Source: Rubripirellula sp.
Lineage (GTDB): Bacteria > Planctomycetota > Planctomycetia > Pirellulales > Pirellulaceae
DNA length: 64,000 bases
Assembly (NCBI GenBank): GCA_965216875.1
Contig: OZ244207.1
Location: forward strand, 7,232,001-7,296,000
Direction of reading: 5' to 3'
A program made the translations under genes and the position numbers. Below are positions 3,661 to 24,846 of this stretch, piece by piece. How positions within the stretch are numbered: position 1 is the stretch's first letter; each line of letters begins with the position of its first letter. The notes under the pieces were generated by a model. The model worked only from the letters and a program-made list of their open reading frames with translations, was not told the DNA's origin and made no database searches.

Positions 3661-4071
3661 CGCAGTCGCCTCCGATTCAGAATGGAATCGATCAAGCAAG
3701 AAAAGCAACTTTTGTTATGACCGATTTTTCACGCGCACGCAAACGTCGCTCGCGACGTGATGGACGGACCGAAACGAGTGCCTTGGTTGGTCAACCCTTC
3801 GATGGGTGAAGGCTCACATTGGACCGAATGTGTCCATCGAATGCAGTCTCATTCGGTCGTCGCATGATCAACGGTGTACGCATGCACGCGGTGACATTCG
3901 CACAGTGAAAAACGCGTTTTTCGCAATCATCAATGGAAAACGCTTGAATGTCCGTTGGTCTTGCATTAACACAAATCTTGGGACGGCGATGGCCATGCTT
4001 TGTCAGTCGTTCCATGGACGAGCCGCATCATGATCTGCGGCTTGGGGGACTCCAAAAAACGGGGGCGTATC

Positions 4072-4758
4072 ATGCTTCGCCAATCGGGCACGTCGGACGG
4101 GCAAACGGTTTTTCTTGACAAGTTCATGCCGGCGCTGGAGGTGCTTCAAGAGGCGGTCAACTACGCGGTTGACACCTCGAACGAGCGATGGGTTTTCGCG
4201 GTTGCGATTTCGGAATTGCGCGAGATGGGGCTGAGCGATAACGACGTTCGCTGGCTTGTCTGCAAGGGAGTTGTGCAGCAGGGGAAGGACCTCTCTTGTG
4301 CTGGCGGACGTTGCGTCGAATCTCAGGCGACGCCCAGCCTTCGCTTCAATGAGCAGAGTTGCTTTGTCCTAACAGACGCGGGGCTCGACTTTGTGAGTCG
4401 AATGGAACACGAGAATCTGCCGGGGGCGCTTCCTGATGAACGCCCGGTTGCACCGGTCACTACCCGGCCTCGCTGGTTAGCCGAAACACGTGAGCTCTAT
4501 TTGGACCAACGTGTGATCAAGCGGTTTCGCTGGCAAGCGGCAAATCAAGAAACGGTCTTGGCGGCGTTCGAAGAAGAGGGATGGCCGCCGGTCGTGCTCG
4601 ATCCACTGCCGCCGAAGACCGAAATCGATTGCAAACGTCGTTTGCATGACACCATCAAAGCCCTCAATCGAAACCAGGAACATGACCTGATTCGGTTCCA
4701 CGGTAACGGCTCAGGGGAAGGTGTTCGCTGGAAACTGGTTTGCGATCCGTTGCCATAA
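4072..4758 (+). CDS. Hypothetical protein with C-terminal winged-helix-like domain, possible regulator
   Basis: C-terminal PRW..ETRELYL..RVIKRF..NQETVLAAFEEEGWP..KRRLHDTIKALNR pattern resembles OmpR-type DNA-binding domains. Start uncertain (4000-4126). Confidence 0.55.
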   Translation: MLRQSGTSDGQTVFLDKFMPALEVLQEAVNYAVDTSNERWVFAVAISELREMGLSDNDVRWLVCKGVVQQGKDLSCAGGRCVESQATPSLRFNEQSCFVLTDAGLDFVSRMEHENLPGALPDERPVAPVTTRPRWLAETRELYLDQRVIKRFRWQAANQETVLAAFEEEGWPPVVLDPLPPKTEIDCKRRLHDTIKALNRNQEHDLIRFHGNGSGEGVRWKLVCDPLP

Positions 4759-4893: not shown

Positions 4894-5784
4894 ATGTCTT
4901 TGGCAATGACCTCCGGCAAGACTCAGTTCGTTGGGCGGGGTTGGCAACGCGATTTGCCTGACCCTCGCGATCTTTCCTACGAAGATGCAGCGGTTCAGAT
5001 CTCTCTTTCAGGCATTGACCGAAAACTCGATCATTTGCCGTTGAAGGTCGATCTTAGTCGTGACGCCGATGGTTTCGAATTGTCAACGCCCAGCGATCAG
5101 GGACAGCTTCATGTGTCGTCGGCGATGACGTGCGCGGCGCTTCTCGAGTATTTCCAGAGGCGGTGTTTGCTACAAGATTTTGTCGGTTCCGCAGCTTTTG
5201 TTTATCGCATGACAAAACGAATGCAGGGGCTTGAGGGAAACGTGCCAACGGGCCTGCGTGATTCTCTCAAAGTGATTGCTCGCTTTGGCTTGCCGCCAAC
5301 CTACCTGCTGCCGGATCGTTCGCTCGGCGACACCGAACTCCTTTCGGACCTCTGCTTGCTTGGCTTTCAAGACGCAGTGCGAAACATGATCTACTTTCGC
5401 ATTGCGGCCGAGACCGACCCTTGGGACGACGTTCTACATCGTATCAAGCGGTTTCTGGCCGCCGGATTTCCTGTCACGCTGGGGTTCTCGATGCCGCGCG
5501 GGACGGCCGATACAGGCTTTGTTCCCTACCGTCCCAAATATGACAGCTATTCGGGCGGGCAATCGGTGTTGGTGGTTGGTTACGACGACACGCTACGTCA
5601 CCGCCAACTTGGGTCGCTTCGAATCCGTGGTTGCTGGGGACCGCAGTGGGGGCAAAACGGCTACGGCTGGCTTCCGTACTGGTATGTCTCCCGAGGTCTG
5701 GCACATGACTTTTGGACGGCGATTGGCCCAGCCTGGTCGAACTCTCCCTTTCTATTTGATCCGAGACTCCACGTGACGAGCTGA
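4894..5784 (+). CDS. Papain-like C1 peptidase homologue lacking the catalytic triad
   Basis: GWQRDLPDPRD, LPLKVDLS, DQG, VLVVGYDD and WGPQWGQNGYGWLPY mark bacterial C1A proteins. The Cys, His and Asn positions read Ser, Gln and Gly. Confidence 0.85.
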   Translation: MSLAMTSGKTQFVGRGWQRDLPDPRDLSYEDAAVQISLSGIDRKLDHLPLKVDLSRDADGFELSTPSDQGQLHVSSAMTCAALLEYFQRRCLLQDFVGSAAFVYRMTKRMQGLEGNVPTGLRDSLKVIARFGLPPTYLLPDRSLGDTELLSDLCLLGFQDAVRNMIYFRIAAETDPWDDVLHRIKRFLAAGFPVTLGFSMPRGTADTGFVPYRPKYDSYSGGQSVLVVGYDDTLRHRQLGSLRIRGCWGPQWGQNGYGWLPYWYVSRGLAHDFWTAIGPAWSNSPFLFDPRLHVTS

Positions 5785-6065: not shown

Positions 6066-9000
6066 ATGTTGAAACAGCAACAACACTTCGCGATAGCCTT
6101 TGGATCTCTTCTCATGGTGATCGGCCTTTGCGGATGCGCCGAACCCGAACCGACGGAGACTGACGAAGCGTTCAAGCGAGCCGGCGTCGAGGGCGTTTCG
6201 GTCGCGGCCGCGGCGCAACGCTACAACTACAACACGACTCAGCAGTCGGATCGAGATGGGTACGGTGCCGACAAGGAAGACGGTGAAGAGGGCGAAGAGT
6301 CGTACGGTACGCGAGAGTGGATCGTTTATGACTACTTCCCTGGAATGGATGCGATCAGCGTGCGTCTCGAATCGGAGCCCGATTGTCCTGACCAACTTCT
6401 TGACACATTGGTCAAAACCGATGAGCAGGATTCTGATCCGAACAAGAAATTTGAGCCGGAAGGTCGGCCGCAAACTCAAGTCGTCACGCCGGATCTTTCC
6501 AAGAACGAAATCGTTGGTCGCAATACTTGGATGGCATGGTGCGGTGGCAATGAGGGGTTCTGGGATTGGCTCGCCACCGACAGTGTTGGGTTCATCGACT
6601 TCGTCAAATTGGTCGACACCCGCAAACGCGAACTTCGCTTCAAAGACACCGGCATGATCAATGAACCGGGGATGGAACAGCGAAGCCAACATTCGGAGTT
6701 TGGGCTTTGGCTGGACCAACCCGAGGATGAACGGATTCGTGCATGGCGCAAAGCCTTTGTTCGACAGACGTTCGACAAGATCGCCGACCGCAAACACAAA
6801 TCGCAAGTTGGTTTGACAAAGGGCCCCAAGTACAACGAGGCTCAACAAGAGGAGCTTTATCAAGGTGATGCCAAGGCTTACGCCGACGAAGGTTACCTCT
6901 ATCCCTCGGACTACATTCGAACCGACGGCAAGCGACGCCTCGATTTGGAATATCGTGGCGGTAAAGGGAGCAACGACGCAACCGAGTATGGCGACGAGGA
7001 TCCCGACTACCTCAAAAAGCTCTATGACTCGCGCGACCTGGAAGCGATCTCGCTATACAGCTTCCTCGACAAGACAATCTTGCCCCCCGACATGTATGGC
7101 CTCTCCAGCGGTATCGTTGGGCTGAGGCTCTTTCCGAATCCCTACTTCGACGACGATGCTCGACAGGCTTGGAATGCCAGGCGGTTCTACAACAAGAAGG
7201 ACGACTACTCGACCGACCCTGCGCTCATTCGGCCCTATCGGGTCGGTATGGCATGCGCGTTTTGCCACGCTTCGTTCCACCCGCTGCGCCCGCCACGCGA
7301 CAACCATAACCCAAGTTGGGAGAACATCTCCGGGAACATCGGTGCGCAGTACCTAAGCATGCGAGCTACGGTCGGCAATCTGTTGACGCGCGACCAGTTT
7401 GTTTATCACCTGCTCGACAGCCAGCCACGCGGCACCATCGACACTTCATTGGTTGCGTCCGACAACATCAATAATCCCAACACCATGAACGCTGTGTTTG
7501 GGCTCAAAGAACGCGCGTTTCTATCACTGCACAACCCCCGCGAAGTGATCTCTCGCGCGAGTGTTCAGTTGCCTTCTTTGTACGCGGGACAGCCAAATGA
7601 TCCTGTGCCTCAAGCGATCATAGATGAACTGACAGAATACGGTCTAGGCGACAAGCTTGACCACTTGAACGACGAGCAACGCTACGTTCCGCGCATCTTG
7701 TTGGACGGTTCGGATTCGATTGGCACATGGGGCGCATTGGCACGCGTCTATCTGAATATTGGAACCTATTGGGAACGCTGGAATCAGCTTCATCAGGTCG
7801 TCCTCGGTTTTACCCCGCAGCAACCGTTTCGCATCAACGATTGTGAAAAGTACTCGGTCTATTGGAACGCCACCGAACAGCGTGTTCCTGGCCTGCGCGA
7901 CTATTTCCTGAAAATCACACCGCCAATGCCGCTGTTGTCGACCGAAGGCGGACTTGAACGCATTCACCATCGGCCTCCGGCGACCAACGAGCGTTTTGTT
8001 TCGCGTTCGAAGTCGAGGGATCGAGCGAGTGGGGTGAATGTCGATCTACTGCAGCATGGCCGAAAGGTGTTTGCGAACAACTGCATCGTTTGTCATTCAA
8101 GCATTCAACCTGAAACGGCAATGATGATGAACGACTATTCGGATGATTATTCCGAGTTGGTCGAACGTCGAATGGAGATTCGTTCGGCCAACGAATTGAA
8201 TGGCGAATTCTATGAGCACGACCCAGGACAATGGTTGAACGACCCCGACTACATCCGTTGGGCGGAAGCGGCGGTCGAAAAAAGGGACTTCTGGAACAAC
8301 AACTACCTGTCCAATGACTACCGCGTTCCCGTCACGATCGTGGGGACAAACTCTGCCCGCGCGATGGCGACCAACGGGATGACCGATCACATGTGGGAAG
8401 ACTTCGCCTCTGAAGACTACAGGCAGCTTCCCTCGCCCGGCGAGATTCGATACTTCAATCCGTATGCTGGCGAGAAGGGCGAATGGGATACCTACTCGCC
8501 ACGTCACAAGACGGCGGAAGGCGTGCCGCCTCAAGGCGGAGGCCCCGGGTACTATCGCGTGCCGACGCTGATCTCGATTTGGGCGACTGCGCCGCTGCTG
8601 CACAACAACAGCCTCGGTCTCTACAACAATGACCCAAGCGTCGACGGGAGGCTCGAGGCATTTGACGATGCAATTCGCAAAATGCTTTGGCCAGAGAAAC
8701 GTCTGGAGAGCAGTAGCTACAACGGAGCAACCGCGGAACGGCTCAAACAAGACCAGGGGCTGATATGGCGGACTCCACAAGAGACCTACCTGTCACTTGA
8801 TTCACGCCGCGTCCCCGCGTTTGCCAAGCGTGGGATCGCAAGTGTTGGCTTGTGGCACAACCACCCTTGGCTTAGCTGGCTCGATGACGTGACGCTGCCA
8901 TGGTTGCCATCGCTGATTCTCGTCGTCGCTTCACTGTTCTTGTTGGTTACCGTCATGGCGCGTTACCGACGCCCAATCGGGATCCTGCTCTTGGTCGCAG

Positions 9001-9542
9001 CGGCGGTGCTTGGGATTGCTCTTTGGCTCGGCCGAAGCGTCTCGGTGTTGTCTGTCCTTGACTGGTCGCGTTGGATCTACCCGTGGTGGTTGCCTCTGTC
9101 GATCGTTGTCGTCGTTGGGCTGGCACTGGTCTTGCTCAAGTCGGCCGCAAAGGTGCGCTGGATTGCTTATTCCAAACTCATTGTTGGCATCGTTCTTGGT
9201 GGCATTATCTACTTCAACGCGGGCAGGTTAGGAGACGTCCAGATTGGACCGATTCCCGAGGGCACACCCGTAAACCTGTTGGCGAATTTCAATTCGGAAG
9301 CTGACAGGATTGACCAAGTCAAGAGTGTACGGACGGCCGTTGCCGGACTGGCGGAAATCGAGTCACGCAAACTGCCGAACGATGAAGCTCGAAAACTGCT
9401 ACGCGAGAAGGTCGCTCCTGCGTTGATGTCGGTCAACAAATGTCCCGACTTTGTCATGGACCGAGGCCACTATTTCCCCTGGTTCGATTCGATGGACGAC
9501 AAAGACAAGAACGCTTTGATCGAACTGCTCAAGACCTTTTGA
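6066..9542 (+). CDS. Large dihaem c-type cytochrome lipoprotein (RoxA-like/cytochrome c peroxidase superfamily) with inserted transmembrane module
   Basis: Lipobox-like LCGC after a hydrophobic stretch; CAFCH (7254-7268) and CIVCH (8082-8096); GYYRVPTLISIWATAPLLHNNS; C-terminal GHYF..DKNALIELLKTF; about four hydrophobic helices at ~8900-9220. Confidence 0.8.
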   Translation: MLKQQQHFAIAFGSLLMVIGLCGCAEPEPTETDEAFKRAGVEGVSVAAAAQRYNYNTTQQSDRDGYGADKEDGEEGEESYGTREWIVYDYFPGMDAISVRLESEPDCPDQLLDTLVKTDEQDSDPNKKFEPEGRPQTQVVTPDLSKNEIVGRNTWMAWCGGNEGFWDWLATDSVGFIDFVKLVDTRKRELRFKDTGMINEPGMEQRSQHSEFGLWLDQPEDERIRAWRKAFVRQTFDKIADRKHKSQVGLTKGPKYNEAQQEELYQGDAKAYADEGYLYPSDYIRTDGKRRLDLEYRGGKGSNDATEYGDEDPDYLKKLYDSRDLEAISLYSFLDKTILPPDMYGLSSGIVGLRLFPNPYFDDDARQAWNARRFYNKKDDYSTDPALIRPYRVGMACAFCHASFHPLRPPRDNHNPSWENISGNIGAQYLSMRATVGNLLTRDQFVYHLLDSQPRGTIDTSLVASDNINNPNTMNAVFGLKERAFLSLHNPREVISRASVQLPSLYAGQPNDPVPQAIIDELTEYGLGDKLDHLNDEQRYVPRILLDGSDSIGTWGALARVYLNIGTYWERWNQLHQVVLGFTPQQPFRINDCEKYSVYWNATEQRVPGLRDYFLKITPPMPLLSTEGGLERIHHRPPATNERFVSRSKSRDRASGVNVDLLQHGRKVFANNCIVCHSSIQPETAMMMNDYSDDYSELVERRMEIRSANELNGEFYEHDPGQWLNDPDYIRWAEAAVEKRDFWNNNYLSNDYRVPVTIVGTNSARAMATNGMTDHMWEDFASEDYRQLPSPGEIRYFNPYAGEKGEWDTYSPRHKTAEGVPPQGGGPGYYRVPTLISIWATAPLLHNNSLGLYNNDPSVDGRLEAFDDAIRKMLWPEKRLESSSYNGATAERLKQDQGLIWRTPQETYLSLDSRRVPAFAKRGIASVGLWHNHPWLSWLDDVTLPWLPSLILVVASLFLLVTVMARYRRPIGILLLVAAAVLGIALWLGRSVSVLSVLDWSRWIYPWWLPLSIVVVVGLALVLLKSAAKVRWIAYSKLIVGIVLGGIIYFNAGRLGDVQIGPIPEGTPVNLLANFNSEADRIDQVKSVRTAVAGLAEIESRKLPNDEARKLLREKVAPALMSVNKCPDFVMDRGHYFPWFDSMDDKDKNALIELLKTF

Positions 9543-9596
9543 TCGTGCGACCTGTCGACACGACTGCAATTCCTTTTGACCCTTCGAGTGACCGTG

Positions 9597-12500
9597 ATGG
9601 CTGATAACGACAAGCAGCCCGAGAGCAAAGACGAATTCGATTTCATCATTGTTGGATCGGGGGCCGGCGGAGCGCCGCTTGCCGCAAGGTTGGCACGTGA
9701 GGGCAAACGGGTCTTGGTGATCGAGGCTGGTCCCAACCAGTCCGATGCGCCCGCCACTGCACCACAAAACGAAGTCTCACGTGTTCCAGCGACTCACGCG
9801 GCTTCGTCCGAACATCCCGATCTGTCGTGGCAGTTCTTTGTCGATCACTACAAACGCAATCAACGCGGCCAACTACCCGAGGGAATTGAAGAGGACCCCA
9901 AGTGGCATGATCCAGCCGATGGTGACGCCCAGCAGACAGGTATCTTCTACCCGCGCGCATCAGGCGTTGGTGGGTGCACGATCCACAACGCCATGATCAC
10001 CGTCCTGGGCCCGCTCTCGGATTGGGACAACCTGGCCAGCTTTTTGGGCGACGATACTTGGAACGGCCGTCAAATGCAGGCCTATTTCAAGCGTCTTGAA
10101 CACAACGACTATCACCCCGTTCCCGACCATTCGCGATTGTCGCGGTCGCGCGCCTATTGGACTTATGTCAAGAATGGGTTCCTTTATCTGATCGGCCGCC
10201 GCCCTGATACCAACGCCGGCAAACACGGTTTTCAAGGTTGGCTGCACACGAGTTTTACCGACATCACGTTGGGGCTCAAAGACACGCAACTGATCAAGAT
10301 GTTGGCGGCTGCGGTCTGGGGATCCAAAAAAAGTGGCCTCGACACCATTGGTTCGTGGAAACGTTTCTTCTTGCGCGGTCGCTATCGGCAAGCGCTCGAT
10401 CCCAACCATAGCGAAACGATGGCCAATAGCCCCGAAGGGATCGCGCTGATTCCGTTGGCCGTACATGGAGGTCGCACGACGATCCATCAAGATCGCTCGA
10501 TGCCCTTCGCGATGCTGGGGCGACGCAGTAGTCCGCGCGAATACCTTTTGTCGACGCTTGCGCTGCATCCCGAAAACCTCACGATCATGACCGATTGTTT
10601 GGTCACCAAGGTCATCCTAAAAACGCGAGGCCGAGGAGACGACGCAAAGAAGGTGGCTGTTGGGGTCGAATACCAAGAAGGTGCCAGCCTCTACCGAGCT
10701 CACCCCGATCCGAGTGAAAAGGATGGCAAAAAGAAGACGTTGCGCGTTCGACCGGGTGGTGAAGTCATCCTTTGTGGCGGGTCGTTCAATACGCCCCAAC
10801 TTCTGATGCTGTCAGGCATTGGGGAAAAGGACGACGATGGAAACATCTCGCTGTCCGCGTCAAGCGAACCACCGGAAAAGCCAATCAAGTGCGAGGTCGA
10901 TCTGCCCGGCGTTGGCAAGAACCTGCAAGATCGGTACGAAGTCTCGGTGGTCAGCGAAATGAACGAGGAGTTCGCGCTGCTAAAAGGTGCCACCTTCAAC
11001 GTTCCTGAAGATCCCGAACAACCTGATCGACACCTTCGTCGTTGGCGCGAAGAAGGAACGGGACTCTACAGCAGCAACGGTGGCGTGCTCGCAATCCTTA
11101 AACGCTCACGCCCCGACCTTGCTCAGCCCGATCTGTTCATCTTTGGCGTTCCGCTCAAATTTGAAGGCTATGAAGTTGGCTATTCCAACCTCAACCAAAA
11201 GAACCTCTTTTCGTGGGTCATTCTGAAAGCCCATACCGAGAATCGCGACGGCTGGGTCAAACTTCGAAGCACCGATCCACGTGACACGCCCGAGATCAAT
11301 TTCAACTATTTTCAGACCATCTCGCGCGCTGGGAAGAGTGAAACGGATCCGGATTTGCAAGCGGTGGTTCACGGCGTTCGCTTCGTGCGTGATTTCCTAA
11401 AGAACGCAAAACGTATCGTTCGGACAGAAGTGCATCCCGGCAGCGAAGTTTCAAGTGACGATGCGGTGCGTGATTGGGTGCGCCGTGATGCATGGGGACA
11501 TCACGCCTGTGGTACTTGCCGAATGGGACCCGATGGCGACAAAAACGCCGTCCTTGATAGTCGGTTTCGCGTTCGGAACGTGAGCAACTTGCGCATCGTG
11601 GATGCATCGATCTTCCCGACGATCCCCGGCTATTTCATCGTTTCGAACATCTACATGGCTTCGGAAAAGGCAGCCGATGTCATCATCGAAGATCACGCTG
11701 ACGACGAAGAAGTTGATCTGAATGAGTACCCCAAAGAGATGCGGGAACTCGAAGCGAAAACGATTCGTCAACGTCGTGAAGAGGCGAGTCAAACGAGCCG
11801 GTCAGACGTTCCCGAGCCTGAAGAGGTCGAAGTCGCTGGCCAGTGGCCCGCTGACCTGACGGGCTTGGCACTGTCGGGTGGTGGTATTCGCAGCGCAACG
11901 TTTTGTCTCGGTCTTCTGCAGGACCTCGCCAAGAACAATGTTTTGCGGAGAGTCGATTACTTGTCGACCGTATCGGGTGGCGGCTACATCGGATCGTTCT
12001 TGGGACGCTTTTATGATCGGATGCGTGATGCGCAGAATCTGAATTCATTACCCGCTGTCGACCGCGCCGAACGCGAAATTGCATCTCCAACATCTCCCGA
12101 GCTTGATTGGTTGCGCAGCCACGGCAACTACATCGCGCCAGGCGGACGGGGTGATGGACGCTACAACTTTGCGATCTTTTTGCGCAACCTGCTCAGCGTG
12201 CATCTGATTATCTTCCTGTTGCTGTTTTCAGCATTCGGACTCGCAAACGCAATTCGCTACGGATTGTTTGATCAGATTCTTGCGACTTGGATGCTCTTTT
12301 TTCGCCAGCCGTTCCCCGTAGGAAATCTTGTCGAATCGGTCAGTGGTCCATGGTTCAGCCCTTGGTTCATGCTGGCCGAGGCAATCGCGTTGTTTGTCGT
12401 GTTGCCACGAATTCTCGGATACTGGATCGTTTCTCCAACCAAACACAACGCCTACAAGACGATTCCTTTGGTTCTTTTGTTCGTGATCGCTGGGACGCTG

Positions 12501-14390
12501 CTGTTCTTTGGCGTGCACGAGGGCCTCAAGCTGCAACTGGTGTTGTTGGGGTTAGCGATGTTTTCGTCCCTGGCTCACGTCGAATATGCGTGGTATTGGG
12601 GACGCTTGCGTGAGGCAGCTGTTGGCACCGGCGGCCCTGCAGCCCAGCGAGCGAGAACACGCAACGATTTGACTTACGACCTTGGGCTCGCATTGGCCTT
12701 AACAGGCATCACGCTTGCGTTTAGTTTGATCGATACCATTTCCAATGGTCTGCATGAGTGGCTGGTGCGCGGCAACGCAACTTACACGGCCGCATTTGCA
12801 TCGCTGATGGGAGCGATTGTTGCTCTGACGCCAGTCGCGCAATGGCTGGCAAAGTTTTTTGCAAGTGACCAAGCTTCGGGGCCTCGGTCGCTTGTGCGAA
12901 TGCTTCGTCGCGACATGATCGCCGGTTTGCTCGCGATCGTTCTCTTCACACTGCCTCTCGTGTTGTACTGCTTTGCATCGCACGCGGTGTATCGCGGAGG
13001 CGCACCTGAGTTTCTTTGGTGGGGGATCGGGTCGACACTTGTCGCCTTGGCACTCAGCATCGCTTTCACTCTGCCGGGAACATGGAGTTTTGTGAATCGA
13101 TCTTCCTTGGCAAACGTCTATGCGGCACGGCTAGCACGCGCTTACCTTGGCGCGTCGAATCCCGCGCGTCATCGCCCCGAAGGTCGGAACGTTGCTGAAG
13201 TGATGCCGGGTGATGATGTCGACTCGATTCGGCAGTATCGCCCCTATGGTGCGTCTGGGCCACTTCACCTGATCAACGTTACCGTTAACCAAACGATTGA
13301 TTATGGCTCGAGACTGGCCAAACGCGATCGGCAAGGCACGAACATGGCGGTCAGTTCGGTGGGGGTCACCGTTGGCGAACAATGGCACAGTGAATGGGTG
13401 GCACCTTCGGATGCAAGTCAATCGTTGGACACGACTCAACCCGTCGGGCTGAAACCTGTGGGTAGGCATCCCGGCGAAGCGCACCCGTTTATTGATGAAC
13501 TGAATCGATCGGCCGATCGAGCTGAAGTCCTCTCTTTGAGACAATGGATTGCGATTTCTGGCGCAGCCGTCGACCCCGGGCGCGGGCGCAATACCAATCT
13601 TGGGACGGCTCTGCTGTTTGGGCTGGTCAACCTTCGCACTGGCCATTGGTGGGACAGCGGAATCACGGAATCAGATCGCGTTGGTTTCCCAGCCAAATCG
13701 CCGATGCGGCGAATCCTCTATCTGCTACCGCGCGTGTTCACGACGCAGGCGTTGCTGTTATACGAATGGTTGGCCAGGTACCCGGGGCCATGGCAGCGTT
13801 TTTGGCATCTTTCCGATGGTGGCTATTTCGAAAACCTCGGCGTTTATGAACTGATTCGCCGGCGTGTTCCGCGGATCATCGCCTGCGACGGTGGTGCGGA
13901 TCCGAACTATGAGCTGAGTGACTTTTCGGAGTTGGTCCGGAAGGTGCGGATCGATTTCGGAGCAAGGATCGAACCGCTCAGTGAAGCAGAGATTGACGCC
14001 GTCAAGAAGAAGTTCGATACGCAAGATGCCTTCGAGAACATCGGCACGATCGAACAGCTACGTCCTGCGGGAGGTGCGTCGATCCCGAGCAAGCACGCGA
14101 CGCTGTGTTGGGTTCACTACCCGCGCGCACCGCGCCAATCGAAAGATCGCCCCACATCCTCTTCGCTCATGCTATACATCAAAGCGTCGGTCAACGGGGA
14201 TGAATCGGAAGACATTCGCAACTACCACCAAGCTCACCCGTCTTTTCCACATGAAAGCACGGCTGACCAGTTCTTTGACGAGGCTCAGTGGGAGAGCTAC
14301 CGAAAACTGGGCGAACATATCGGCGAGCTCTTTGACACGGATTGGTTCTGGAACGTTGACCTACCCACAAGCATCGAGGAAGTCGCGTGA
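9597..14390 (+). CDS. GMC oxidoreductase fused to patatin/cPLA2-like membrane phospholipase
   Basis: GMC half: IVGSGAGG FAD motif, RASGVGGCTIHNAM, GVGKNLQD, WGHHACGTCRMG, RIVDASIFP. Lipase half: GLALSGGGIRSA, YLSTVSGGGY, multiple TM helices, LSDGGYFENLG, FPHESTADQFFDEAQWESYR. One uninterrupted frame. Confidence 0.9.
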   Translation: MADNDKQPESKDEFDFIIVGSGAGGAPLAARLAREGKRVLVIEAGPNQSDAPATAPQNEVSRVPATHAASSEHPDLSWQFFVDHYKRNQRGQLPEGIEEDPKWHDPADGDAQQTGIFYPRASGVGGCTIHNAMITVLGPLSDWDNLASFLGDDTWNGRQMQAYFKRLEHNDYHPVPDHSRLSRSRAYWTYVKNGFLYLIGRRPDTNAGKHGFQGWLHTSFTDITLGLKDTQLIKMLAAAVWGSKKSGLDTIGSWKRFFLRGRYRQALDPNHSETMANSPEGIALIPLAVHGGRTTIHQDRSMPFAMLGRRSSPREYLLSTLALHPENLTIMTDCLVTKVILKTRGRGDDAKKVAVGVEYQEGASLYRAHPDPSEKDGKKKTLRVRPGGEVILCGGSFNTPQLLMLSGIGEKDDDGNISLSASSEPPEKPIKCEVDLPGVGKNLQDRYEVSVVSEMNEEFALLKGATFNVPEDPEQPDRHLRRWREEGTGLYSSNGGVLAILKRSRPDLAQPDLFIFGVPLKFEGYEVGYSNLNQKNLFSWVILKAHTENRDGWVKLRSTDPRDTPEINFNYFQTISRAGKSETDPDLQAVVHGVRFVRDFLKNAKRIVRTEVHPGSEVSSDDAVRDWVRRDAWGHHACGTCRMGPDGDKNAVLDSRFRVRNVSNLRIVDASIFPTIPGYFIVSNIYMASEKAADVIIEDHADDEEVDLNEYPKEMRELEAKTIRQRREEASQTSRSDVPEPEEVEVAGQWPADLTGLALSGGGIRSATFCLGLLQDLAKNNVLRRVDYLSTVSGGGYIGSFLGRFYDRMRDAQNLNSLPAVDRAEREIASPTSPELDWLRSHGNYIAPGGRGDGRYNFAIFLRNLLSVHLIIFLLLFSAFGLANAIRYGLFDQILATWMLFFRQPFPVGNLVESVSGPWFSPWFMLAEAIALFVVLPRILGYWIVSPTKHNAYKTIPLVLLFVIAGTLLFFGVHEGLKLQLVLLGLAMFSSLAHVEYAWYWGRLREAAVGTGGPAAQRARTRNDLTYDLGLALALTGITLAFSLIDTISNGLHEWLVRGNATYTAAFASLMGAIVALTPVAQWLAKFFASDQASGPRSLVRMLRRDMIAGLLAIVLFTLPLVLYCFASHAVYRGGAPEFLWWGIGSTLVALALSIAFTLPGTWSFVNRSSLANVYAARLARAYLGASNPARHRPEGRNVAEVMPGDDVDSIRQYRPYGASGPLHLINVTVNQTIDYGSRLAKRDRQGTNMAVSSVGVTVGEQWHSEWVAPSDASQSLDTTQPVGLKPVGRHPGEAHPFIDELNRSADRAEVLSLRQWIAISGAAVDPGRGRNTNLGTALLFGLVNLRTGHWWDSGITESDRVGFPAKSPMRRILYLLPRVFTTQALLLYEWLARYPGPWQRFWHLSDGGYFENLGVYELIRRRVPRIIACDGGADPNYELSDFSELVRKVRIDFGARIEPLSEAEIDAVKKKFDTQDAFENIGTIEQLRPAGGASIPSKHATLCWVHYPRAPRQSKDRPTSSSLMLYIKASVNGDESEDIRNYHQAHPSFPHESTADQFFDEAQWESYRKLGEHIGELFDTDWFWNVDLPTSIEEVA

Positions 14391-15724
14391 ACGTTGCGCT
14401 GCTACGCCGATTCCGAATGCAATGTGCGGTGGTCGGAGTCTTGATTGCCGCTGCCCATCTGCACGCATCCGATCACGCCGATCCGATTCTGCTGTTCGGT
14501 CCACCACAGGAACAAGGGCTGACGGGGTTGTTTGTGTTTCCGGTGGATGCGGATGGAAATGTGATTCACGCGTTTACGCGCCCCGCTGGGCTTCCACTTC
14601 ACAAGCCCGAAGCCGATATTGTTCGTCAGCCGTTGACCGAGGAAGAGGTCGACAAGATTCGCAGTGTCGTTTTCATCCTTTGCATTCGCCCGCAACTGAC
14701 CAACAACGAACAGTTTCGACCGTCACCCTATACCTATCGAATCCAGATCGACATCGACAGCTATCCCGAAGTCGATCTGATCAAGGTCGACGCTCCTTCG
14801 GCCGGCGTGATTCCTCGACCCAACGTTGATGAATCAATACCACACTCTCACAACGAGCCGCCGCCGATGAAGTTGATCGAGGCATACGCTCGCTACGGCG
14901 GACGCATTCCCAACTTCAGAGAGATTGAAGAGGACATCACGCTGGAATTCAAACTCAACAACAACGGAACCATCGCGGATGGTTATCCAATCATTGAGTC
15001 AGCGGGGGCGGATCCTAGCGGGATCGTTTGCGAAGCGGGGATTTTCGATGATCCATTTATCTTTCCGATGTTCTCCGACACGAACGTTGTGGCCATCACC
15101 GCGACAGTGCCCGTTGAGGTCTTTCGCGGCAAGACCGATCTATTGGTTTGGGGCACAACCCACAAGAAATCAAAGAAGATCGACCATGTCGGTCGCGCGC
15201 TGAGAACGCAGAACCCGAGATTCGAGATGCTCAATCGGCTTCGCCCCCGCGAGCATGTTGATGCGTTGCTCGCTGAACGCAATGACCCTGGATTGATCCG
15301 CGATCTCGCTCTCAAGTTCAACCTCAGTTCGTTGTTTGCCTATCGCGAGTGGGACTTCGTTCCCGATGTCGCTTGCTATTCGACGCGTTACCCAGCTGGT
15401 TTTCCGAACGGGCGTCTCCTTAGCGATGACATTGCTGCAATGCTCGCCCAGCACGGCGATGTGGTGCTGTTTGAACTTTCTCACGCCGGTGACGACTTTC
15501 GGTGGCCTCGCACGACGAAGCATGACCCCGAGTTTCATTCAGCCGCGCCCTACTTGACCGAAAGGTTTGGAAGTCGCCCACAACCGTCGGGCTACCGCCT
15601 GAGCGTCAAGAACAAGCTCCTACTCTTGGCGATCTTTTGTTTGGCGCTCGTGTTGTACGCGTTGTCGGTGTGGGTGTTCGCTCGGCTGTACTACAAATGG
15701 AAAGTTCGTAAGCGGTACCTCTGA
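14387..15724 (+). CDS. DUF4331-like exported protein with C-terminal membrane anchor
   Basis: Signal peptide then ASDHADP; DDPFIF, IDHVGR and PAGFPNGRLLSDD motifs; C-terminal TM helix plus basic tail; GTGA overlap with the upstream stop. Confidence 0.75.
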   Translation: MNVALLRRFRMQCAVVGVLIAAAHLHASDHADPILLFGPPQEQGLTGLFVFPVDADGNVIHAFTRPAGLPLHKPEADIVRQPLTEEEVDKIRSVVFILCIRPQLTNNEQFRPSPYTYRIQIDIDSYPEVDLIKVDAPSAGVIPRPNVDESIPHSHNEPPPMKLIEAYARYGGRIPNFREIEEDITLEFKLNNNGTIADGYPIIESAGADPSGIVCEAGIFDDPFIFPMFSDTNVVAITATVPVEVFRGKTDLLVWGTTHKKSKKIDHVGRALRTQNPRFEMLNRLRPREHVDALLAERNDPGLIRDLALKFNLSSLFAYREWDFVPDVACYSTRYPAGFPNGRLLSDDIAAMLAQHGDVVLFELSHAGDDFRWPRTTKHDPEFHSAAPYLTERFGSRPQPSGYRLSVKNKLLLLAIFCLALVLYALSVWVFARLYYKWKVRKRYL

Positions 15725-16785
15725 TGAAGTTTGATTCGTCCCACTTCGGCTCACAAGGGTTTGGCGATGAAGATCGTCGTGCCAAGGGATCGCGGTATAG
15801 CGACGTCAAGAAAGCACTTCATCACAATGCCTACTATCTTGAATGGAACGGTCCAGACGAGCCGGGTTTGCCGACGTATGGCGTGACGTTGGGGCGAGTG
15901 CTCAAGGGAATCCTACCCTACGGTCTACCATGGTGCTTTCGAGATGCTGCCGCTCGAACACTCGATTCGAATGCGGACATGCGTTGGGGGCCAGACAACC
16001 GTGGCTTCCGACGTTTGGTGCATCCGAATGGAGTTTGCTTGTTCGGCAAATGGAAGATCGATCAACCGACGCCTTACACGGGTTACTTTGAAGAGGGCAA
16101 AGAGGCGTTGATCATCGGCCGCTACTCGACCTGTTGTTCCGAAACTCGTCGTGGCAACAACCGATCGCTATCGTTGGTTGGAAAGCTTTATCCAACGGTT
16201 GATGAAAACCACACCGAGCTGCTTGAGACAGCAAACTTCATTACCCAAGAAGACCTTGGCGGGATGCGGACCGACTTCATCAACGATGCAAAACTTCGAA
16301 ACGCTCCCGACACAACTCCTTGGCGGCGCGGCTGGGGGGCACCAATTCTCTTGTTGACCGGGGTCGCGTTTCTGATGGTTGATCGCGAACCAACCGTCCG
16401 TCAACTCTATCCCGTCGCCGAACTTGGCAAGCCACGCGGTGAAGCGACGTATTGCCCGCGGTTCATGCAATTGACGGTTGGGTCGTCAATGCCGCGGATT
16501 GATGGCGATGGGTTGGATTTCCGAAATGAAATCATGGAACACATTTACGGAGACCGGGGAACAGGCAAGCTGACCTTTGACATTGAGGTCACCGACCACG
16601 GAACCACACATGGGTTGGTGATTCAAAGGCGTCGGTTTCCTAGAGGATGGCGTCGTATTGGGTCGATTGAGTTTACCGAGGCCGTCGTTTCATACAACAG
16701 CGACTTCGTGATCCACTTTCAGCACCCTCCCTGGCGCCGCGACCGCAACGACGCTGGCAGCGTGATTCGGAAACCGGACCGCTGA
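15724..16785 (+). CDS. Catalase-fold (catalase-related) protein
   Basis: RRLVHPNGVCLFG (distal His motif), IGRYS (RFS-like), SLVGKL, ANFITQ; TGATG overlap with the upstream gene. Confidence 0.65.
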   Translation: MKFDSSHFGSQGFGDEDRRAKGSRYSDVKKALHHNAYYLEWNGPDEPGLPTYGVTLGRVLKGILPYGLPWCFRDAAARTLDSNADMRWGPDNRGFRRLVHPNGVCLFGKWKIDQPTPYTGYFEEGKEALIIGRYSTCCSETRRGNNRSLSLVGKLYPTVDENHTELLETANFITQEDLGGMRTDFINDAKLRNAPDTTPWRRGWGAPILLLTGVAFLMVDREPTVRQLYPVAELGKPRGEATYCPRFMQLTVGSSMPRIDGDGLDFRNEIMEHIYGDRGTGKLTFDIEVTDHGTTHGLVIQRRRFPRGWRRIGSIEFTEAVVSYNSDFVIHFQHPPWRRDRNDAGSVIRKPDR

Positions 16786-16808: not shown

Positions 16809-17333
16809 TCAACGATTCTTCGAAGCGCGATAGGAACGTCGCGTTTCGGGTTGCAGTCGTGATGATGGATCGCTGTCAGACATGCCGCCAAGACGCCATG
16901 CCTGCGATTCGCCCGACTTGAGATAGGCTTCGCGGAAGGCATCGAACGTGGTTTCGTGCAACACCTTGTCCATCGCTTCGTTGACCTCGACCAACTTGTC
17001 GTGAAGCGGGCACTTGTCGCCGACGCCACAGATCCCACCACCAAACGGGCAGCTTTCATCTTGGTCTTCGCGCTCGAAGAGTCGGTAGACGTCGTAGAGT
17101 TTGACCTCGATGGGATCCTTGGCGAACGAAAACCCGCCGCCCGGCCCACGTGATCCAACGACGATGCCCACCTGCGAAAGCGTTGAAAGAACTTTGGCCA
17201 CATAGGGACGCTGCAGCCCACGCGACTCGGCGATCTCTGATGCAGAGAGACGGGTATCCCCACCGTCGTACACTTCCGCGAGCCGGCTTAGCGCCGCAAT
17301 GGCTGTCTGGGTTGCACTACCGTAAGGATTCAT
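16809..17333 (-). CDS. Rrf2 family transcriptional regulator
   Basis: EIAE..LQRPYVAKVLSTL..GSRGPGGGF; CPFGGGICGVGDKCPLH Cys/His cluster. Confidence 0.93.
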   Translation of the reverse strand: MNPYGSATQTAIAALSRLAEVYDGGDTRLSASEIAESRGLQRPYVAKVLSTLSQVGIVVGSRGPGGGFSFAKDPIEVKLYDVYRLFEREDQDESCPFGGGICGVGDKCPLHDKLVEVNEAMDKVLHETTFDAFREAYLKSGESQAWRLGGMSDSDPSSRLQPETRRSYRASKNR

Positions 17334-17360: not shown

Positions 17361-18632
17361 TCAAGATTGAGTGGCTGGTTCCGAGTCGCGGGACATCTGG
17401 CCCGAAAAGACCGAGACAACCAGTTTCAAGATCACGGTCAGGATCAACAGCCCCATCGCCCAAATACCCGCGGTCACTTTCCATTCAACCAAGCTGGGCG
17501 AGTATTCGACGATCTCGTGCAAGGTCGATGGAATGAAGCCTGGAATAATGAGACCCATTCCCTTTTCAATCCAGATGCCGACGATGCAAAGTAGGCACGC
17601 GATGATACGCAGCGACCCTCGTTCGAGCGCGGCCGGCATAAAGAACAGCAACGCCCCAAGCAGGTTGCAGGCAATCGATGTCCAAATCCAGGGAACCAGT
17701 CCGTTGTGCCCGTGGCTGCCAAAGTAAAGGTATTCGCCCGCGCCTTTGTGTGCGCCGCCGGTGTAAAAGATCGTGAAGACCTCGCTGCCCAGCATGATCA
17801 GGTTGGCAACCATCGCGACACGGATGATCTGAATCAACGTGTTGGCGGGTCCCGGATGTCCGTCATAACGCGTCGTCATCCGAATCACTCGCATGACAAG
17901 GATGATGAAGGCCGGCCCGCTGACAAAGGCGGATGCGAGAAACCGCGGTGCAAGCAGAGCTGTGTTCCAGAAGGGACGACCACCGAGACCACAGTAAAGG
18001 AAGGCCGTGACGGTATGGATGCTGATTGCCCAAATGATCGATAGGAACACAAAGGGAACGTACCAAGTTGGGTTCGGCTTTTTGCCCAAATACCGCATGT
18101 AAAGTAGGTAGCCGACGATGTGCAGGTTCAACAGCAGGTAGCCGTTAAGCACAATCACGTCCCAGGTCAGCATCGACATGGGCCAATTGAATCGCCCAAT
18201 CCCCGGGATCAAATGCCAAAAGCGATCTGGGCGACCAAGGTCGACCAAGACAAACGACGTGCACATGATGATCGCAGCGATCGCAACCGCTTCGCCAATG
18301 ATCACCACCTTGTGCATTTCCTCATCGTCGTACAGGTAGGCGGGGATCACCATCATCACGCCGCCAGCGGCAAGCCCGACACAGAAGGTGAAGTTGGCGA
18401 TGTAGAGCCCCCAACTCACGTGATCGGTCATGTTGGTGACGATCATCCCGTCAGCAACCTGATTGGCCCACGCGTTGGCGCCGACCAGGGCGACGGCGGT
18501 TAACGCCACCATCCAAGCGTAAAAGGCAAGTGATCCGTCGGTCGCGACCGAAAGGGATCGACGCAGGAACTGGGGGTAACTGGATATCGCAGTTCCCTTT
18601 CCAGCGGCTTGATTAGCTGTCGTGTCACTCAT
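17361..18632 (-). CDS. NrfD/PsrC/DsrP-family polytopic quinol-interacting membrane subunit
   Basis: VSWGLYIANFTF, DLGRPDRFWH, WPMSMLTWD, HTVTAFLY, RPFWNTALLAPRFLASAF; about 10 TM helices. Confidence 0.92.
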   Translation of the reverse strand: MSDTTANQAAGKGTAISSYPQFLRRSLSVATDGSLAFYAWMVALTAVALVGANAWANQVADGMIVTNMTDHVSWGLYIANFTFCVGLAAGGVMMVIPAYLYDDEEMHKVVIIGEAVAIAAIIMCTSFVLVDLGRPDRFWHLIPGIGRFNWPMSMLTWDVIVLNGYLLLNLHIVGYLLYMRYLGKKPNPTWYVPFVFLSIIWAISIHTVTAFLYCGLGGRPFWNTALLAPRFLASAFVSGPAFIILVMRVIRMTTRYDGHPGPANTLIQIIRVAMVANLIMLGSEVFTIFYTGGAHKGAGEYLYFGSHGHNGLVPWIWTSIACNLLGALLFFMPAALERGSLRIIACLLCIVGIWIEKGMGLIIPGFIPSTLHEIVEYSPSLVEWKVTAGIWAMGLLILTVILKLVVSVFSGQMSRDSEPATQS

Positions 18633-18704
18633 GATTGATTGCGTTGGTAAATCGTCGTGCCTCGACAAGGATTCGTTTCGGCCTGACTATTTTTCATGGA
18701 GCAG

Positions 18705-19646
18705 CTATTTGTCAAAGAAGTAGAAGAACGCAGGCTGCGTTCCCACTTCCTCTTTCAAGACATACACACGCTTGTTTTCTAACAACCAGCGAATCTCTGA
18801 ATCAGGATCAAGGATGTTGCCAAACACGCGAGCACCCGTCGGGCAGGCTTCCAGGCAGGCTGGCAGACGGCCACGACGCGTGCGATGCAAACAGTAGGTG
18901 CATTTTTCGACGGCGCCTTGCGGTCGAATCCGATTGCTCAAATAGCTTTGATCCGGATTGACTTCCTCGGCAGGGACTTCAGGCTTTTTCCAGTTGAAGC
19001 GACGAGCGTGATAGGGACACGCCGCTTCACAGTAGCGACAACCGATGCACCAGTTGTAGTCGACCACAACGATGCCATCTTCCTCTTTCCAAGTTGCTTG
19101 CACCGGGCAAACATCAACGCAAGGTGGGTTGTCGCATTGTTGGCACTGGACCGGCAAATAGAACTTGTCTTCGGCGGGAACCGTATGATCGTAGGTCGTA
19201 TTCCCATGCTCCATGTCCATGGTCCCTTTGGGCATCTCCAGGACACGGATATAGGATTGGTTGGTCGCGCGGTCGTGGTTGTTTTCTTTGTGGCACGCTT
19301 CGACACATTTGCCGTTGCCGTTGCAAACGCTCAAATTGATCGCGTAGACGAACTTGGTTCCAGGGATGGGGCGATCGTCCGAGATCGTGACATCGGCCCC
19401 GTACTGCTCTTTCGTCTCTGCCTCGAGTCGAGCGATGACGGCTTTCTTGTCGTCATCACTGAGTTCCTGGTAATGCTGCTGCATGAACGCAGCCGCCGAG
19501 GTTTCTTTGGCCGCTTTGCGTAGTGGCGAGATGGCGCCGACGAAGGCCGCAGCGCCCAAGGTTGCGAAACCACCCTTGACCGCCGTGCGTCGTGTAACAA
19601 CGGGAAGCGAAGTGTCCGATGGCGATGGGCTCGACTCACTCATCAT
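18705..19646 (-). CDS. Tat-exported 4Fe-4S ferredoxin subunit (NrfC/DsrO type)
   Basis: TRRTAVKGG signal; CNGNGKCVEAC, CQQCDNPPCVDVCP, CIGCRYCEAACPY, KCTYC..PACLEACP. Confidence 0.92.
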   Translation of the reverse strand: MMSESSPSPSDTSLPVVTRRTAVKGGFATLGAAAFVGAISPLRKAAKETSAAAFMQQHYQELSDDDKKAVIARLEAETKEQYGADVTISDDRPIPGTKFVYAINLSVCNGNGKCVEACHKENNHDRATNQSYIRVLEMPKGTMDMEHGNTTYDHTVPAEDKFYLPVQCQQCDNPPCVDVCPVQATWKEEDGIVVVDYNWCIGCRYCEAACPYHARRFNWKKPEVPAEEVNPDQSYLSNRIRPQGAVEKCTYCLHRTRRGRLPACLEACPTGARVFGNILDPDSEIRWLLENKRVYVLKEEVGTQPAFFYFFDK

Positions 19647-20368
19647 TCCACCTCCTCGGTTGCGATCGCTTGATGGTCATCATGTGCTGGGCCGTGACTT
19701 GGCTCGAGGAACCGATCCTTTGGTTTAAACGTCGGTTGCATCGATGGAAACTGGGGTTGGTGAGGGTCATGGCAATCAACGCAGTTGTTGCGTGTTCGCG
19801 GACCACGGGTGAGATCCCAAAATCCATTCATGCCACCGTGACCACCATGTGCAAAATCACGAGCCTGTGGCCCATGGCACTGCGAACAAAGTGTCATCAC
19901 GTTCTCGTACTCGACACTGGTCCCGTCGGCCAAGTGAAGCGTGTCCATGTTTTCGGTGTTGTGGCAGGCATAGCATGTGATTTTGCCGTGATCGAATGGC
20001 ATGCCCTGATGAAACTCGTTCAGGTCCGCGGTGACTTTGTTGTCGCGATTGGGTGGACGAACGGTGTGACAAGTTGAACAGGCAATGCTTCCCGTTCGAC
20101 CCTGTGGATCGGCGTCGGTCAATTCGACGCGCGGCGGACCACTCGGCTTGCGGATCGTCGTTTCAAACGGCTGCGACGAATTGTCTTGAGAAGTTGCAGC
20201 GACTTGGTCGGCAGACGTTGAGATCAAGCGTCGAAGATGCTCGCCCTGTTCGGCGTCGTTTGCCTGGCTCGGATCGCTGGATGTCATCGCAACCGTCAGC
20301 AAACCAAGAGCAACCGAACCAACAACCCAAGGCAGGGCATGCATTTTCGCGATGCGAAGTCGGCTCAT
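19643..20368 (-). CDS. Tetrahaem c-type cytochrome
   Basis: N-terminal hydrophobic signal; CSTCH, CYACH, CSQCH, CVDCH; overlaps the start of the downstream gene. Confidence 0.9.
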   Translation of the reverse strand: MSRLRIAKMHALPWVVGSVALGLLTVAMTSSDPSQANDAEQGEHLRRLISTSADQVAATSQDNSSQPFETTIRKPSGPPRVELTDADPQGRTGSIACSTCHTVRPPNRDNKVTADLNEFHQGMPFDHGKITCYACHNTENMDTLHLADGTSVEYENVMTLCSQCHGPQARDFAHGGHGGMNGFWDLTRGPRTRNNCVDCHDPHQPQFPSMQPTFKPKDRFLEPSHGPAHDDHQAIATEEVE

Positions 20369-20491
20369 GCGAGAAGGCTCCCGTGAAGAGTTTTCGGCGT
20401 CAACGGGAGCGTTATGAAACGGCGGGCGTTTCGATTGTGTCGCTCTCGCGAAGCCTTGACGGGGAAGACCTTATCATTTCCTGATGCCAAT

Positions 20492-20549
20492 TCAAGAGTT
20501 ATTGGTCTTTTGTTCTTGATAAATTCGGACTAAACGATACGTTATCGTT
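20492..20549. promoter_or_regulatory. Candidate operator(s) in the AT-rich divergent promoter
   Basis: TCAAGA-N16-TCTTGA (20492-20519) and perfect AACGATA-cgt-TATCGTT (20533-20549) inverted repeats between the divergent operons. Confidence 0.4.
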
Positions 20550-20574
20550 CGATCCATCCTGGGAAAGGACCGTC

Positions 20575-20892
20575 ATGCCCGTCAGCGGACTCGTCGTATC
20601 TTTGGTCCCCGACCCATCGCAGCGCCGTGATGCGCTCGCGAAGATCGCTGCCCACGCGCGCATCGAAGTCGGCCAAGATGATGGACATTGCGTGGCGATC
20701 GTGACCGACACGCCTTCTGCCCAAGCCGACAAAGCGCTCTGGGACTGGATCTATCAAATCCCAGGTGTGATTCATCTCGAAGTTGCCTTTGTCGGTTTTG
20801 ACGAAGACGTTGATGAATCGACTCAATCGCAAACCAACCAACCATCGTGTCAACAAGGCATCTCGGACCAAGAGATGTCGATAGATAATTGA
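20575..20892 (+). CDS. napD: NapD chaperone
   Basis: MPVSGLVV..IEV..IPGVIHLEVAFV pattern, directly upstream of napA. Confidence 0.8.
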   Translation: MPVSGLVVSLVPDPSQRRDALAKIAAHARIEVGQDDGHCVAIVTDTPSAQADKALWDWIYQIPGVIHLEVAFVGFDEDVDESTQSQTNQPSCQQGISDQEMSIDN

Positions 20893-20908
20893 GCATAGGG
20901 TTTCAAAC

Positions 20909-24827: not shown

Positions 24828-24846
24828 ACTTGCGCGATCTTCATTG

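Follow-up and report, generated by a model that had tools for sequence, protein, structure and literature searches.

Known chemistry in the RoxA clan of di-haem cytochromes c comes only from the rubber oxygenases and from a pair of Pseudomonas enzymes acting on oleate. In P. aeruginosa, PA2077 (10S-dioxygenase) and PA2078 (7,10-diol synthase) are di-haem enzymes resembling RoxA, and they oxygenate oleic acid (PMC4496055; bioRxiv 10.1101/2021.09.08.459554). As described in PMC4496055, these characterised small-molecule members of the clan have oleic acid and its hydroperoxide as substrates; the dioxygenase PA2077 retains the Trp and Phe of RoxA, and PA2078, which acts on the hydroperoxide, is without the Trp. 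The second ligand of haem 2 is His641 in RoxA (PMC6311187) and His611 in PA2077 (PMC4496055 Table 1). Here we compare with these systems a four-gene operon (genes A to D) of Rubripirellula sp., located in a 64,000-nucleotide stretch of contig OZ244207.1 (assembly GCA_965216875.1, positions 7,232,001 to 7,296,000 of the forward strand), which we call the window. The operon may be likened to the Pseudomonas oleate-diol synthase route and, more loosely, to lipase-dioxygenase-catalase-related cascades. PA2077/PA2078 is its characterised precedent, which a first-pass annotation of this DNA had not named.

We confirmed that the operon is real and conserved across several bacterial phyla. The reading that we prefer, with a probability of roughly 0.4, is that its products form a module across the inner membrane that oxidises membrane fatty acids, in which A uses peroxide and is coupled to the GMC flavoenzyme domain of B; that lipid oxidation of some kind is involved is quite probable. 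The four open reading frames, all on the forward strand, span 6066-9542 (A), 9597-14390 (B), 14387-15724 (C, with a GTG start codon) and 15724-16785 (D), and encode proteins of 1158, 1597, 445 and 353 amino acids (aa), respectively. The length of A is counted from the ATG at 6066; a further in-frame ATG is found at 6024. A and B are separated by 54 nucleotides (nt), and B/C and C/D overlap as GTGA and TGATG. Hydrophobic segments comprise a lipoprotein signal and 4 helices in A, 8 helices in B, and a signal peptide and 1 C-terminal helix in C, with none above threshold in D. The layout described in the first-pass annotation, i.e. four co-directional genes, the last three overlapping and three with membrane segments, is all seen, and its family calls were borne out by profiles and predicted structure (RoxA/FadCcp clan for A, GMC and patatin for B, DUF4331-like for C and a predicted catalase fold for D). 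The features are the following.

6066..9542, + strand: gene A, di-haem cytochrome c lipoprotein of the RoxA/FadCcp clan (profile comparison, motifs)
7254..7268, + strand: haem 1 motif of A, CAFCH (C397-H401; motif scan)
7698..7763, + strand: stretch of A aligned to the RoxA distal pocket, with L545-L546-D547-G548, D550, R560, N564, I565 and G566 (two-step profile alignment)
8082..8096, + strand: haem 2 motif of A, CIVCH (C673-H677; motif scan)
9462..9473, + strand: C-terminal RGHY of A with His1135, 23 residues before the end (alignment)
9597..11711, + strand: GMC flavoenzyme domain of gene B, residues 1-705 (Pfam, motifs)
11712..14390, + strand: patatin/cPLA2-type domain of gene B, split by eight membrane helices at about 865-1157 (weak Pfam match, motifs)
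14387..15724, + strand: gene C, DUF4331-like, with a signal peptide and one C-terminal membrane anchor (weak Pfam match, homologues, ESM Atlas)
15724..16785, + strand: gene D, predicted catalase-fold protein without signal peptide (predicted fold, alignment)

An operon is favoured over a chance arrangement because its gene order or its parts are found again in unrelated genomes. Neighbours were counted in 47 of the 65 other loci with A, after dropping 18 loci with less than 600 nt downstream; the Rubripirellula genome itself and L054, a duplicate of L050, were also dropped before counting. Of the 51 loci in which 600 nt or more are available downstream, 44 have GMC as the gene that follows A, a figure made up of 43/47, L078 (where the GMC gene starts ~630 nt away) and 0/4 verrucomicrobial loci. 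Among the seven that do not, five have RoxA-like paralogues directly behind A (L011, L046 and L146-L148), L145 is cut short because the contig breaks off where a look-alike gene begins, and L066 is fragmentary. In three of the four verrucomicrobial loci, a B-type patatin (E about 1e-128) comes after RoxA-like paralogues; the fourth locus is cut. Of the 31 loci in which 5.5 kb or more are available downstream, 27 have a patatin close to A, in three arrangements: B-type (22/28), a patatin not matched by the B domain (2 rhizobial loci), and without GMC in 3/3 verrucomicrobial loci. This survey bears out the expected co-occurrence of homologues, since the linkage recurs across phyla, and the patatin arrangements, including the one that the B domain does not match, uphold the lipid theme proposed in the first-pass annotation. 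The proposed four-gene unit stands as a conserved operon, but not as one fixed unit. When the 19 loci with 8 kb downstream were compared, C was present in 12, D in 8 and all four parts in 8, and the order and strand of C and D varied, suggesting that both genes are accessory.

Fusions tie every operon gene to another. Among 53 longer relatives of D, 50 have the architecture C-membrane helices-D, mostly with three helices, and D-A, GMC-D and soluble patatin-D fusions were found once each. In another planctomycete (G662), a 1724-aa protein (L127:4012-9186) combines in one chain a catalase-related domain of the Tyr type and a membrane patatin of the B type. As assessed in two samples of genomes, D occurs only in genomes with A (2/4 and 1/5 of the A-containing genomes, i.e. 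three genomes besides our own).

A displays a lipobox (LCGC, Cys24), two CxxCH motifs, which are present in 117/117 aligned relatives, and a variant MauG-like motif, PLLHNNS, with Asn for Gly (H846). Its direct library matches are weak, with NF040606 (E 9e-9, 35 vs 150 bits) and PF21419 (E 7e-4, 19.6 vs 26.7 bits) both below cut-off, and RoxC (NF051462) at 13.1 vs 900 bits. When profiles were compared with hhalign, A matched ten PF21419 proteins (nine encoded at A loci, the tenth at another site of the Rubripirellula genome) with a probability of 99.2 and E 1.4e-19, and the profile of these ten proteins finds RoxA (4b2n) first, with E 3.8e-33, 26 orders above the next match. A smaller RoxA-like PF21419 di-haem gene is found elsewhere in the Rubripirellula genome, without the operon (L118:8591-10069; G000:5388590-5390068). 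At position 1135, His is present in 145/149 alignment rows, with gaps in the other 4, and this residue is probably the second axial ligand of haem 2, equivalent to RoxA His641 and PA2077 His611. Four membrane helices (about 947-1048) are inserted before it; this insert ranges from 0 to 12 membrane helices among relatives. Loop charges place both flanks of the insert in the periplasm, and the catalytic domain is predicted to be periplasmic. We rejected A as a CcpA/MauG di-haem peroxidase on its NF040606 score and because the ligand pattern differs: in di-haem cytochrome c peroxidases the sixth ligand of haem 2 is Met or Tyr, whereas the conserved ligand candidate after haem 2 in A is His1135, Met1131 being found in 82/149 rows.

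How A compares with its characterised relatives was judged for PA2077/PA2078 through their published description (PMC4496055 Table 1), not by sequence alignment. A resembles them in its two CxxCH motifs about 240-280 residues apart, a MauG-type motif, a His ~23 residues from the C terminus, an export signal and a lipid context, and, like PA2078 as described, it is without the inter-haem Trp. On the other hand, PA2077 and PA2078 are ~630 aa long and secreted, whereas A has 1158 aa, is lipid-anchored and carries 4 inserted membrane helices. Moreover, the Pseudomonas pair consists of two paralogues, whereas the partners of A are a GMC flavoenzyme, a membrane patatin, the DUF4331-like C and the catalase-fold D. 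With RoxA/RoxB, as described (4b2n; PMC6311187), A shares the homologous core, the C-terminal GH...LIE.LKT end and a probable bis-His haem 2, but it is without Phe317 and Trp302, is membrane-bound and not secreted, and has no rubber context. As assessed by membership tests, A is not RoxA, just as D is not the coral allene oxide synthase (cAOS) discussed below.

A also differs in its putative distal pocket. Through both profile alignments, RoxA F301-W302-D303-G304 maps to L545-L546-D547-G548 of A, and RoxA A316-F317-G318 to N564-I565-G566. The commonest residues at the RoxA Trp302 position (546 in A) are Leu (63 of 149 rows), Lys (34) and Phe (26), and at the Phe317 position (I565), for which the mapping is indirect, Ile is found in 145/149 rows. 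D550, R560 and G566 are present in 149/149 rows and N564 in 148/149. Haem sites that cleave peroxide typically have polar distal Arg/Asn residues. Because the RoxA Trp and Phe are not kept, Arg560 and Asn564 stand in their vicinity and PA2078 offers a precedent, the pocket residues favour, without proving, a peroxide-using enzyme. By this indirect mapping, the earlier proposal that A activates O2 as RoxA does is disfavoured.

B is a fusion. Its N-terminal part matches GMC_oxred_N (109.9 bits) and GMC_oxred_C (75.2 bits), both over the Pfam cut-off, and displays GxGxxG, His130, the catalytic His636 and Phe680, where His/Asn is usual. Among the motif matches, His130 is conserved in 45/45, HH in 36/36 and Phe in 37/37. 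By sequence, the domain is closest in the PDB to fatty acid photodecarboxylase (1e-34) and choline oxidase (3e-32); the scores are similar and do not fix the substrate, and choline dehydrogenase models are far below cut-off (225 vs 605). Like choline oxidase (2jbv), fatty acid photodecarboxylase (5ncc) and aryl-alcohol oxidase, the domain has the FAD (flavin adenine dinucleotide) motif and the catalytic His. As in choline oxidase, there is a His at the covalent-FAD position, His130 being aligned to choline oxidase His99, which we take to be the covalent FAD attachment site. Unlike all three, it has Phe at the second His/Asn site and is fused to a membrane patatin. No signal peptide was found for the GMC domain, and export by the twin-arginine (Tat) route was rejected, there being no signal in the aligned N termini. 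The remainder of B contains the patatin motifs, i.e. the oxyanion G761-G763/R765 (SGGGIRS), Ser793 (STVSGG) and Asp1407 (DGG), all retained in aligned fused relatives. The Pfam Patatin model scores 23.8 vs 27.7 bits and covers the N-terminal half only, the domain being split by helices; the relative in L127 is over the cut-off, with 37.2 bits. A PDB sequence search with the patatin half found nothing significant. The alternation of Lys/Arg-rich loops agrees with the positive-inside rule if the patatin halves and the GMC domain are in the cytoplasm, where all are predicted to lie. Elsewhere in the Rubripirellula genome (L081:6497-10633), there is a stand-alone 1378-aa membrane-split patatin related to the B domain (E 4e-31).

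D has no Pfam match, a Pfam scan of 60 members of its family gave no catalase match, and PDB sequence searches with D and with its profile found nothing significant. Its profile matches catalases weakly (E 0.011 over 45 columns), and comparison with small catalase-related proteins gave no significant match. The call of a catalase fold comes from a model and not from sequence profiles. The fold predicted from 127 sequences has a local confidence score (pLDDT) of 94 and a global one (pTM) of 0.93, vs a pLDDT of 29 from the single sequence. This model superposes on six catalase-fold chains with Z 11.0-11.7, the next row being at 5.9, and Foldseek and a second structural comparison agree. For cAOS (1u5u/3dy5), the Mycobacterium 33 kDa catalase-related protein (3e4w) and EasC (9jdb), Z is 11.3-11.7 with a root-mean-square deviation of 3.5-4.4 Å over 187-193 residues, whereas unrelated barrels reach 5.9 or less. 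EasC, included among the catalase-related comparison proteins, is described as a chanoclavine synthase (PMC12003167).

The residues of D that can be named are R97, the distal H100, R133, S135, C137-C138, Q175 and the invariant H334. R97, H100, R133 and S135 match the catalase haem site, and conservation is nearly complete (R97 and R133 in 127/127, H100 in 126/127). With cAOS, as described in PMC5617202, D shares the distal His and the two haem-propionate Arg positions (Arg64/Arg102). It differs in having no proximal Tyr helix, Leu/Ile/Val at position 99 in place of Thr66, Gln175 and Glu/Gln176 near Asn137 (aligned by eye), the extra invariant His334 and Cys137-Cys138, and a lipoxygenase fusion in 0/53 longer relatives. 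No Tyr follows W337 in 127/127 sequences. The chain ends a median of 19 residues past W337, before the proximal Arg-x3-Tyr helix into which the small catalase-related proteins aligned with D run on. Likewise, the superposition stops at cAOS residue 340, the proximal Tyr of cAOS being Y353, and no RxxxY was found in 49/49 fused D tails examined. A circularly permuted Tyr helix seems unlikely (the invariant Tyr37 is present, but no Arg-x3-Tyr pattern), and we rejected a working catalase, D being without the proximal Tyr. D thus falls outside the catalase-related allene oxide synthases and hydroperoxide lyases despite its predicted fold, and the suggestion in the first-pass annotation that it works like coral allene oxide synthase was not supported, for want of equivalents of the proximal Tyr, Thr66 and Asn137. 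Pro lines the proximal side in catalase. His334 is a candidate haem ligand because it is invariant and stands beside the Pro of that side; D would bind haem via a non-Tyr ligand, possibly this one, or bind no haem. The family is large (2233 clusters) and conserved, and a catalase fold without the proximal Tyr would represent a new use of the fold.

C matches DUF4331 (PF14224) below cut-off (E 0.004, 16.8 vs 27 bits), 2 of 4 scanned homologues pass that cut-off, and ESM Atlas assigns C to DUF4331 with 0.94. It is predicted to be periplasmic and anchored C terminally. Its mature N terminus is S-D-H, and S-D-H-A-D follows the signal peptide in 12/12 homologues examined. An N-terminal Xaa-Xaa-His is the Cu/Ni-binding pattern known as ATCUN (amino-terminal Cu- and Ni-binding), so Ser-Asp-His may form a metal-binding site. 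A literature search found no paper on DUF4331, for which the C-D fusion would be the first functional lead. In Mesorhizobium, HupE/UreJ and DUF4198 genes flank C. A cassette of DUF4331, TPR and HupE/UreJ genes recurs upstream of A in L031, L034, L045 and L059, preceded in the last two by phosphoesterase and ceramidase-like genes.

In the reading that we prefer, the patatin domain of B, as its motifs suggest, would release a fatty acid from a membrane lipid, and periplasmic A would oxygenate or rearrange it with peroxide, not O2, as its residues and the PA2078 precedent suggest. The alcohol so formed may then be converted by the GMC domain into a ketone or aldehyde. Acting as an oxidase, this domain would generate H2O2 able to pass through the membrane and re-prime A; the net cycle would be CH2 + O2 -> C=O, for which fungal peroxygenase/alcohol-oxidase pairs provide an analogy. 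Where GMC is missing, RoxA-like paralogues with the inter-haem Trp might supply lipid hydroperoxide, and either of the two behind A fits the need for a peroxide supplier. C and D could, more speculatively, be an accessory sensing or peroxide-handling pair with D on the cytoplasmic side. The predicted topology has A and C outside, and GMC, patatin and D inside; for C and D, this follows from the prevalence of three helices in the C-D fusions. The substrate is probably a fatty acyl chain: both faces are within easy reach only for a molecule soluble in the membrane, and a bilayer-resident substrate suits the split topology. At the sequence level, support comes from intact patatin motifs, the GMC catalytic His, two haem motifs, the RoxA-type C-terminal His, the linkage and the fusions. 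A bolder version, which we put forward only tentatively and consider doubtful, is a lipoxygenase-free, self-priming oxylipin machine. It would have a new peroxide-driven RoxA-like class outside, an oxidase-lipase fusion inside, and a receptor-shaped protein in which membrane helices join the periplasmic C domain to the Tyr-less catalase-fold domain, with His-ligated haem or as a peroxide sensor. The A family, whose neighbours in planctomycetes, verrucomicrobia and rhizobia include a lipase and a flavoenzyme, would permit a direct test of a third RoxA-clan chemistry; it also bears on how widely bacteria make oxylipins without lipoxygenase, and plasmid copies in Rhizobium and Mesorhizobium make it genetically tractable. 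A literature search, with most subscription papers and supplements outside its reach, found no paper on the operon or on the subfamily of A.

Several points weigh against peroxide use by A and its coupling to GMC. PDB sequence searches with A and with its profile found nothing significant, and the distal-pocket assignment comes from a two-step profile alignment with a 4-residue insertion. Met94, present in 122/149 rows, is a possible sixth haem ligand and would point to electron transfer. The Phe at the second active-site position leaves alcohol oxidation and O2 use by GMC not assured, and PA2078 haem-ligand mutants are described as still active (PMC4496055), so that the precedent itself is not understood. 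No patatin is within range of A in 4/28 long loci (L011, L038, L045 and L046). Rhizobial loci have both GMC and RoxA-like paralogues, and the either-or pattern is therefore not strict. Finally, the loci are partly kin and not independent (L067 and L068 are near-identical), and the three single D fusions may be assembly or read-through artefacts.

The closest competitor follows the first-pass annotation and keeps the oxylipin theme. A could be an O2-using fatty-acid dioxygenase like PA2077, with D converting the hydroperoxide and GMC, joined in rhizobia by an old-yellow-enzyme reductase, tailoring an oxylipin signal. The same lipid linkage of the loci speaks for it, as does the lack of a lipoxygenase among the neighbours scanned, which calls for a hydroperoxide source; A also appears to keep the RoxA layout of a bis-His haem 2 with haem 1 open, and an Oxidored_FMN gene comes first in rhizobial clusters. 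Yet Trp is not among the commonest residues at the W302 site and Ile replaces Phe317, both of which PA2077 is described as having (PMC4496055), and D is without the proximal Tyr, Thr66 and Asn137 equivalents and missing from 11/19 long loci, which makes this explanation possible but rather improbable. Membrane repair, which we regard as unlikely, would have patatin cut out acyl chains that have become peroxidised, with A and D reducing or breaking hydroperoxides, GMC oxidising toxic alcohols or aldehydes, and no signal made. It would account for the polar Arg/Asn in the putative pocket of A, the catalase-fold D and an animal-type haem peroxidase after GMC in L042, and it agrees with the finding of no PF00199 catalase in the Rubripirellula genome (99% complete), in a search confined to PF00199 in which other catalase types were not searched. 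However, the spread is very patchy for a housekeeping function (3/401, 5/201 and 5/401 genomes), and the cluster is without an obvious periplasmic electron donor.

We find it more unlikely that the substrate is not a membrane lipid (but an isoprenoid, wax or aromatic ester), or that A accepts electrons from GMC acting as a dehydrogenase, in the manner of flavoprotein-cytochrome c sugar dehydrogenases. In favour of this, A-GMC is the tightest link (44/51), the conserved Met94 could ligate haem, and RoxA is described as cleaving polyisoprene (PMC6311187). Against this, GMC is without an export signal and its predicted location is the face opposite A, and patatin stays with A in three GMC-less loci. 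Patatins are known effectors of defence systems, and an anti-phage or antagonism module (an H2O2-generating/consuming defence module was already raised as an alternative in the first-pass annotation) could make H2O2 or turn patatin on the cell's own membrane. The patchy distribution and the TIR-domain genes flanking the L011 locus would suit such a module, but PADLOC matched 0/5 proteins at E 0.01, no recurrent sensor or nucleotide-signalling gene was found among the scanned neighbours, and the neighbours in the window are respiratory and metal genes, so we consider this highly improbable.

At 90% clustering, the A family counts at least 3063 members. A cluster look-up of ten distant relatives yielded no informative names. 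Named hosts are Planctomycetota, Verrucomicrobiota, Rhizobium, Sinorhizobium and Mesorhizobium, and the closest named relatives of A, among the matches listed, are from Stieleria and Rhodopirellula. The module is rare, being present in 3/401 sampled genomes of the phylum, 5/201 of the family and 5/401 of a second phylum (counts that include our own genome). No match was obtained with the A query in two genomes of the same genus, and a scan of genome contigs with A alone found 1 locus. The rhizobial clusters L013:4825-17177 and L014:4786-17163 consist of an old-yellow-enzyme reductase (the Oxidored_FMN gene at their head), two RoxA-like paralogues, a small gene, A, GMC and a different patatin, which in L014 is in two pieces. 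In Mesorhizobium, a LodA/GoxA-family oxidase (L012:402-2357, - strand) is found about 7 kb upstream of A; this family produces H2O2.

In the Rubripirellula genome, each of the four genes is single-copy, except for distant GMC and patatin paralogues. The GC content of the four-gene region equals that of the remaining window, and promoter and terminator scans of the region gave fewer sites than in shuffled sequence. Contigs from four candidate RNA runs did not cover the region or its neighbours, which has no bearing on whether the genes are expressed. Two genes on the + strand precede A, from which the nearer is separated by 281 nt: one encoding a 252-aa protein (4000-4758) and one encoding a papain-like protein (4894-5784), the latter with no Pfam match and apparently without the catalytic Cys and His (motifs by eye). 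A second copy of this pair, without the operon, is found elsewhere in the genome (G000:5653972-5655795), and the pair is also present upstream of A in L079, on the opposite strand. Further upstream and divergent from the operon, a DHOR-family (PF06537) di-haem protein is encoded on the - strand (1930-3708); it has several genomic paralogues and was not seen in other A loci. Downstream, an Rrf2 regulator gene (16809-17333, - strand) is convergent with D across a 23-nt gap, and next to it, as judged by eye, is an apparent NrfD/ferredoxin/multihaem set with a Nap-like periplasmic nitrate reductase cluster (17361-25137).

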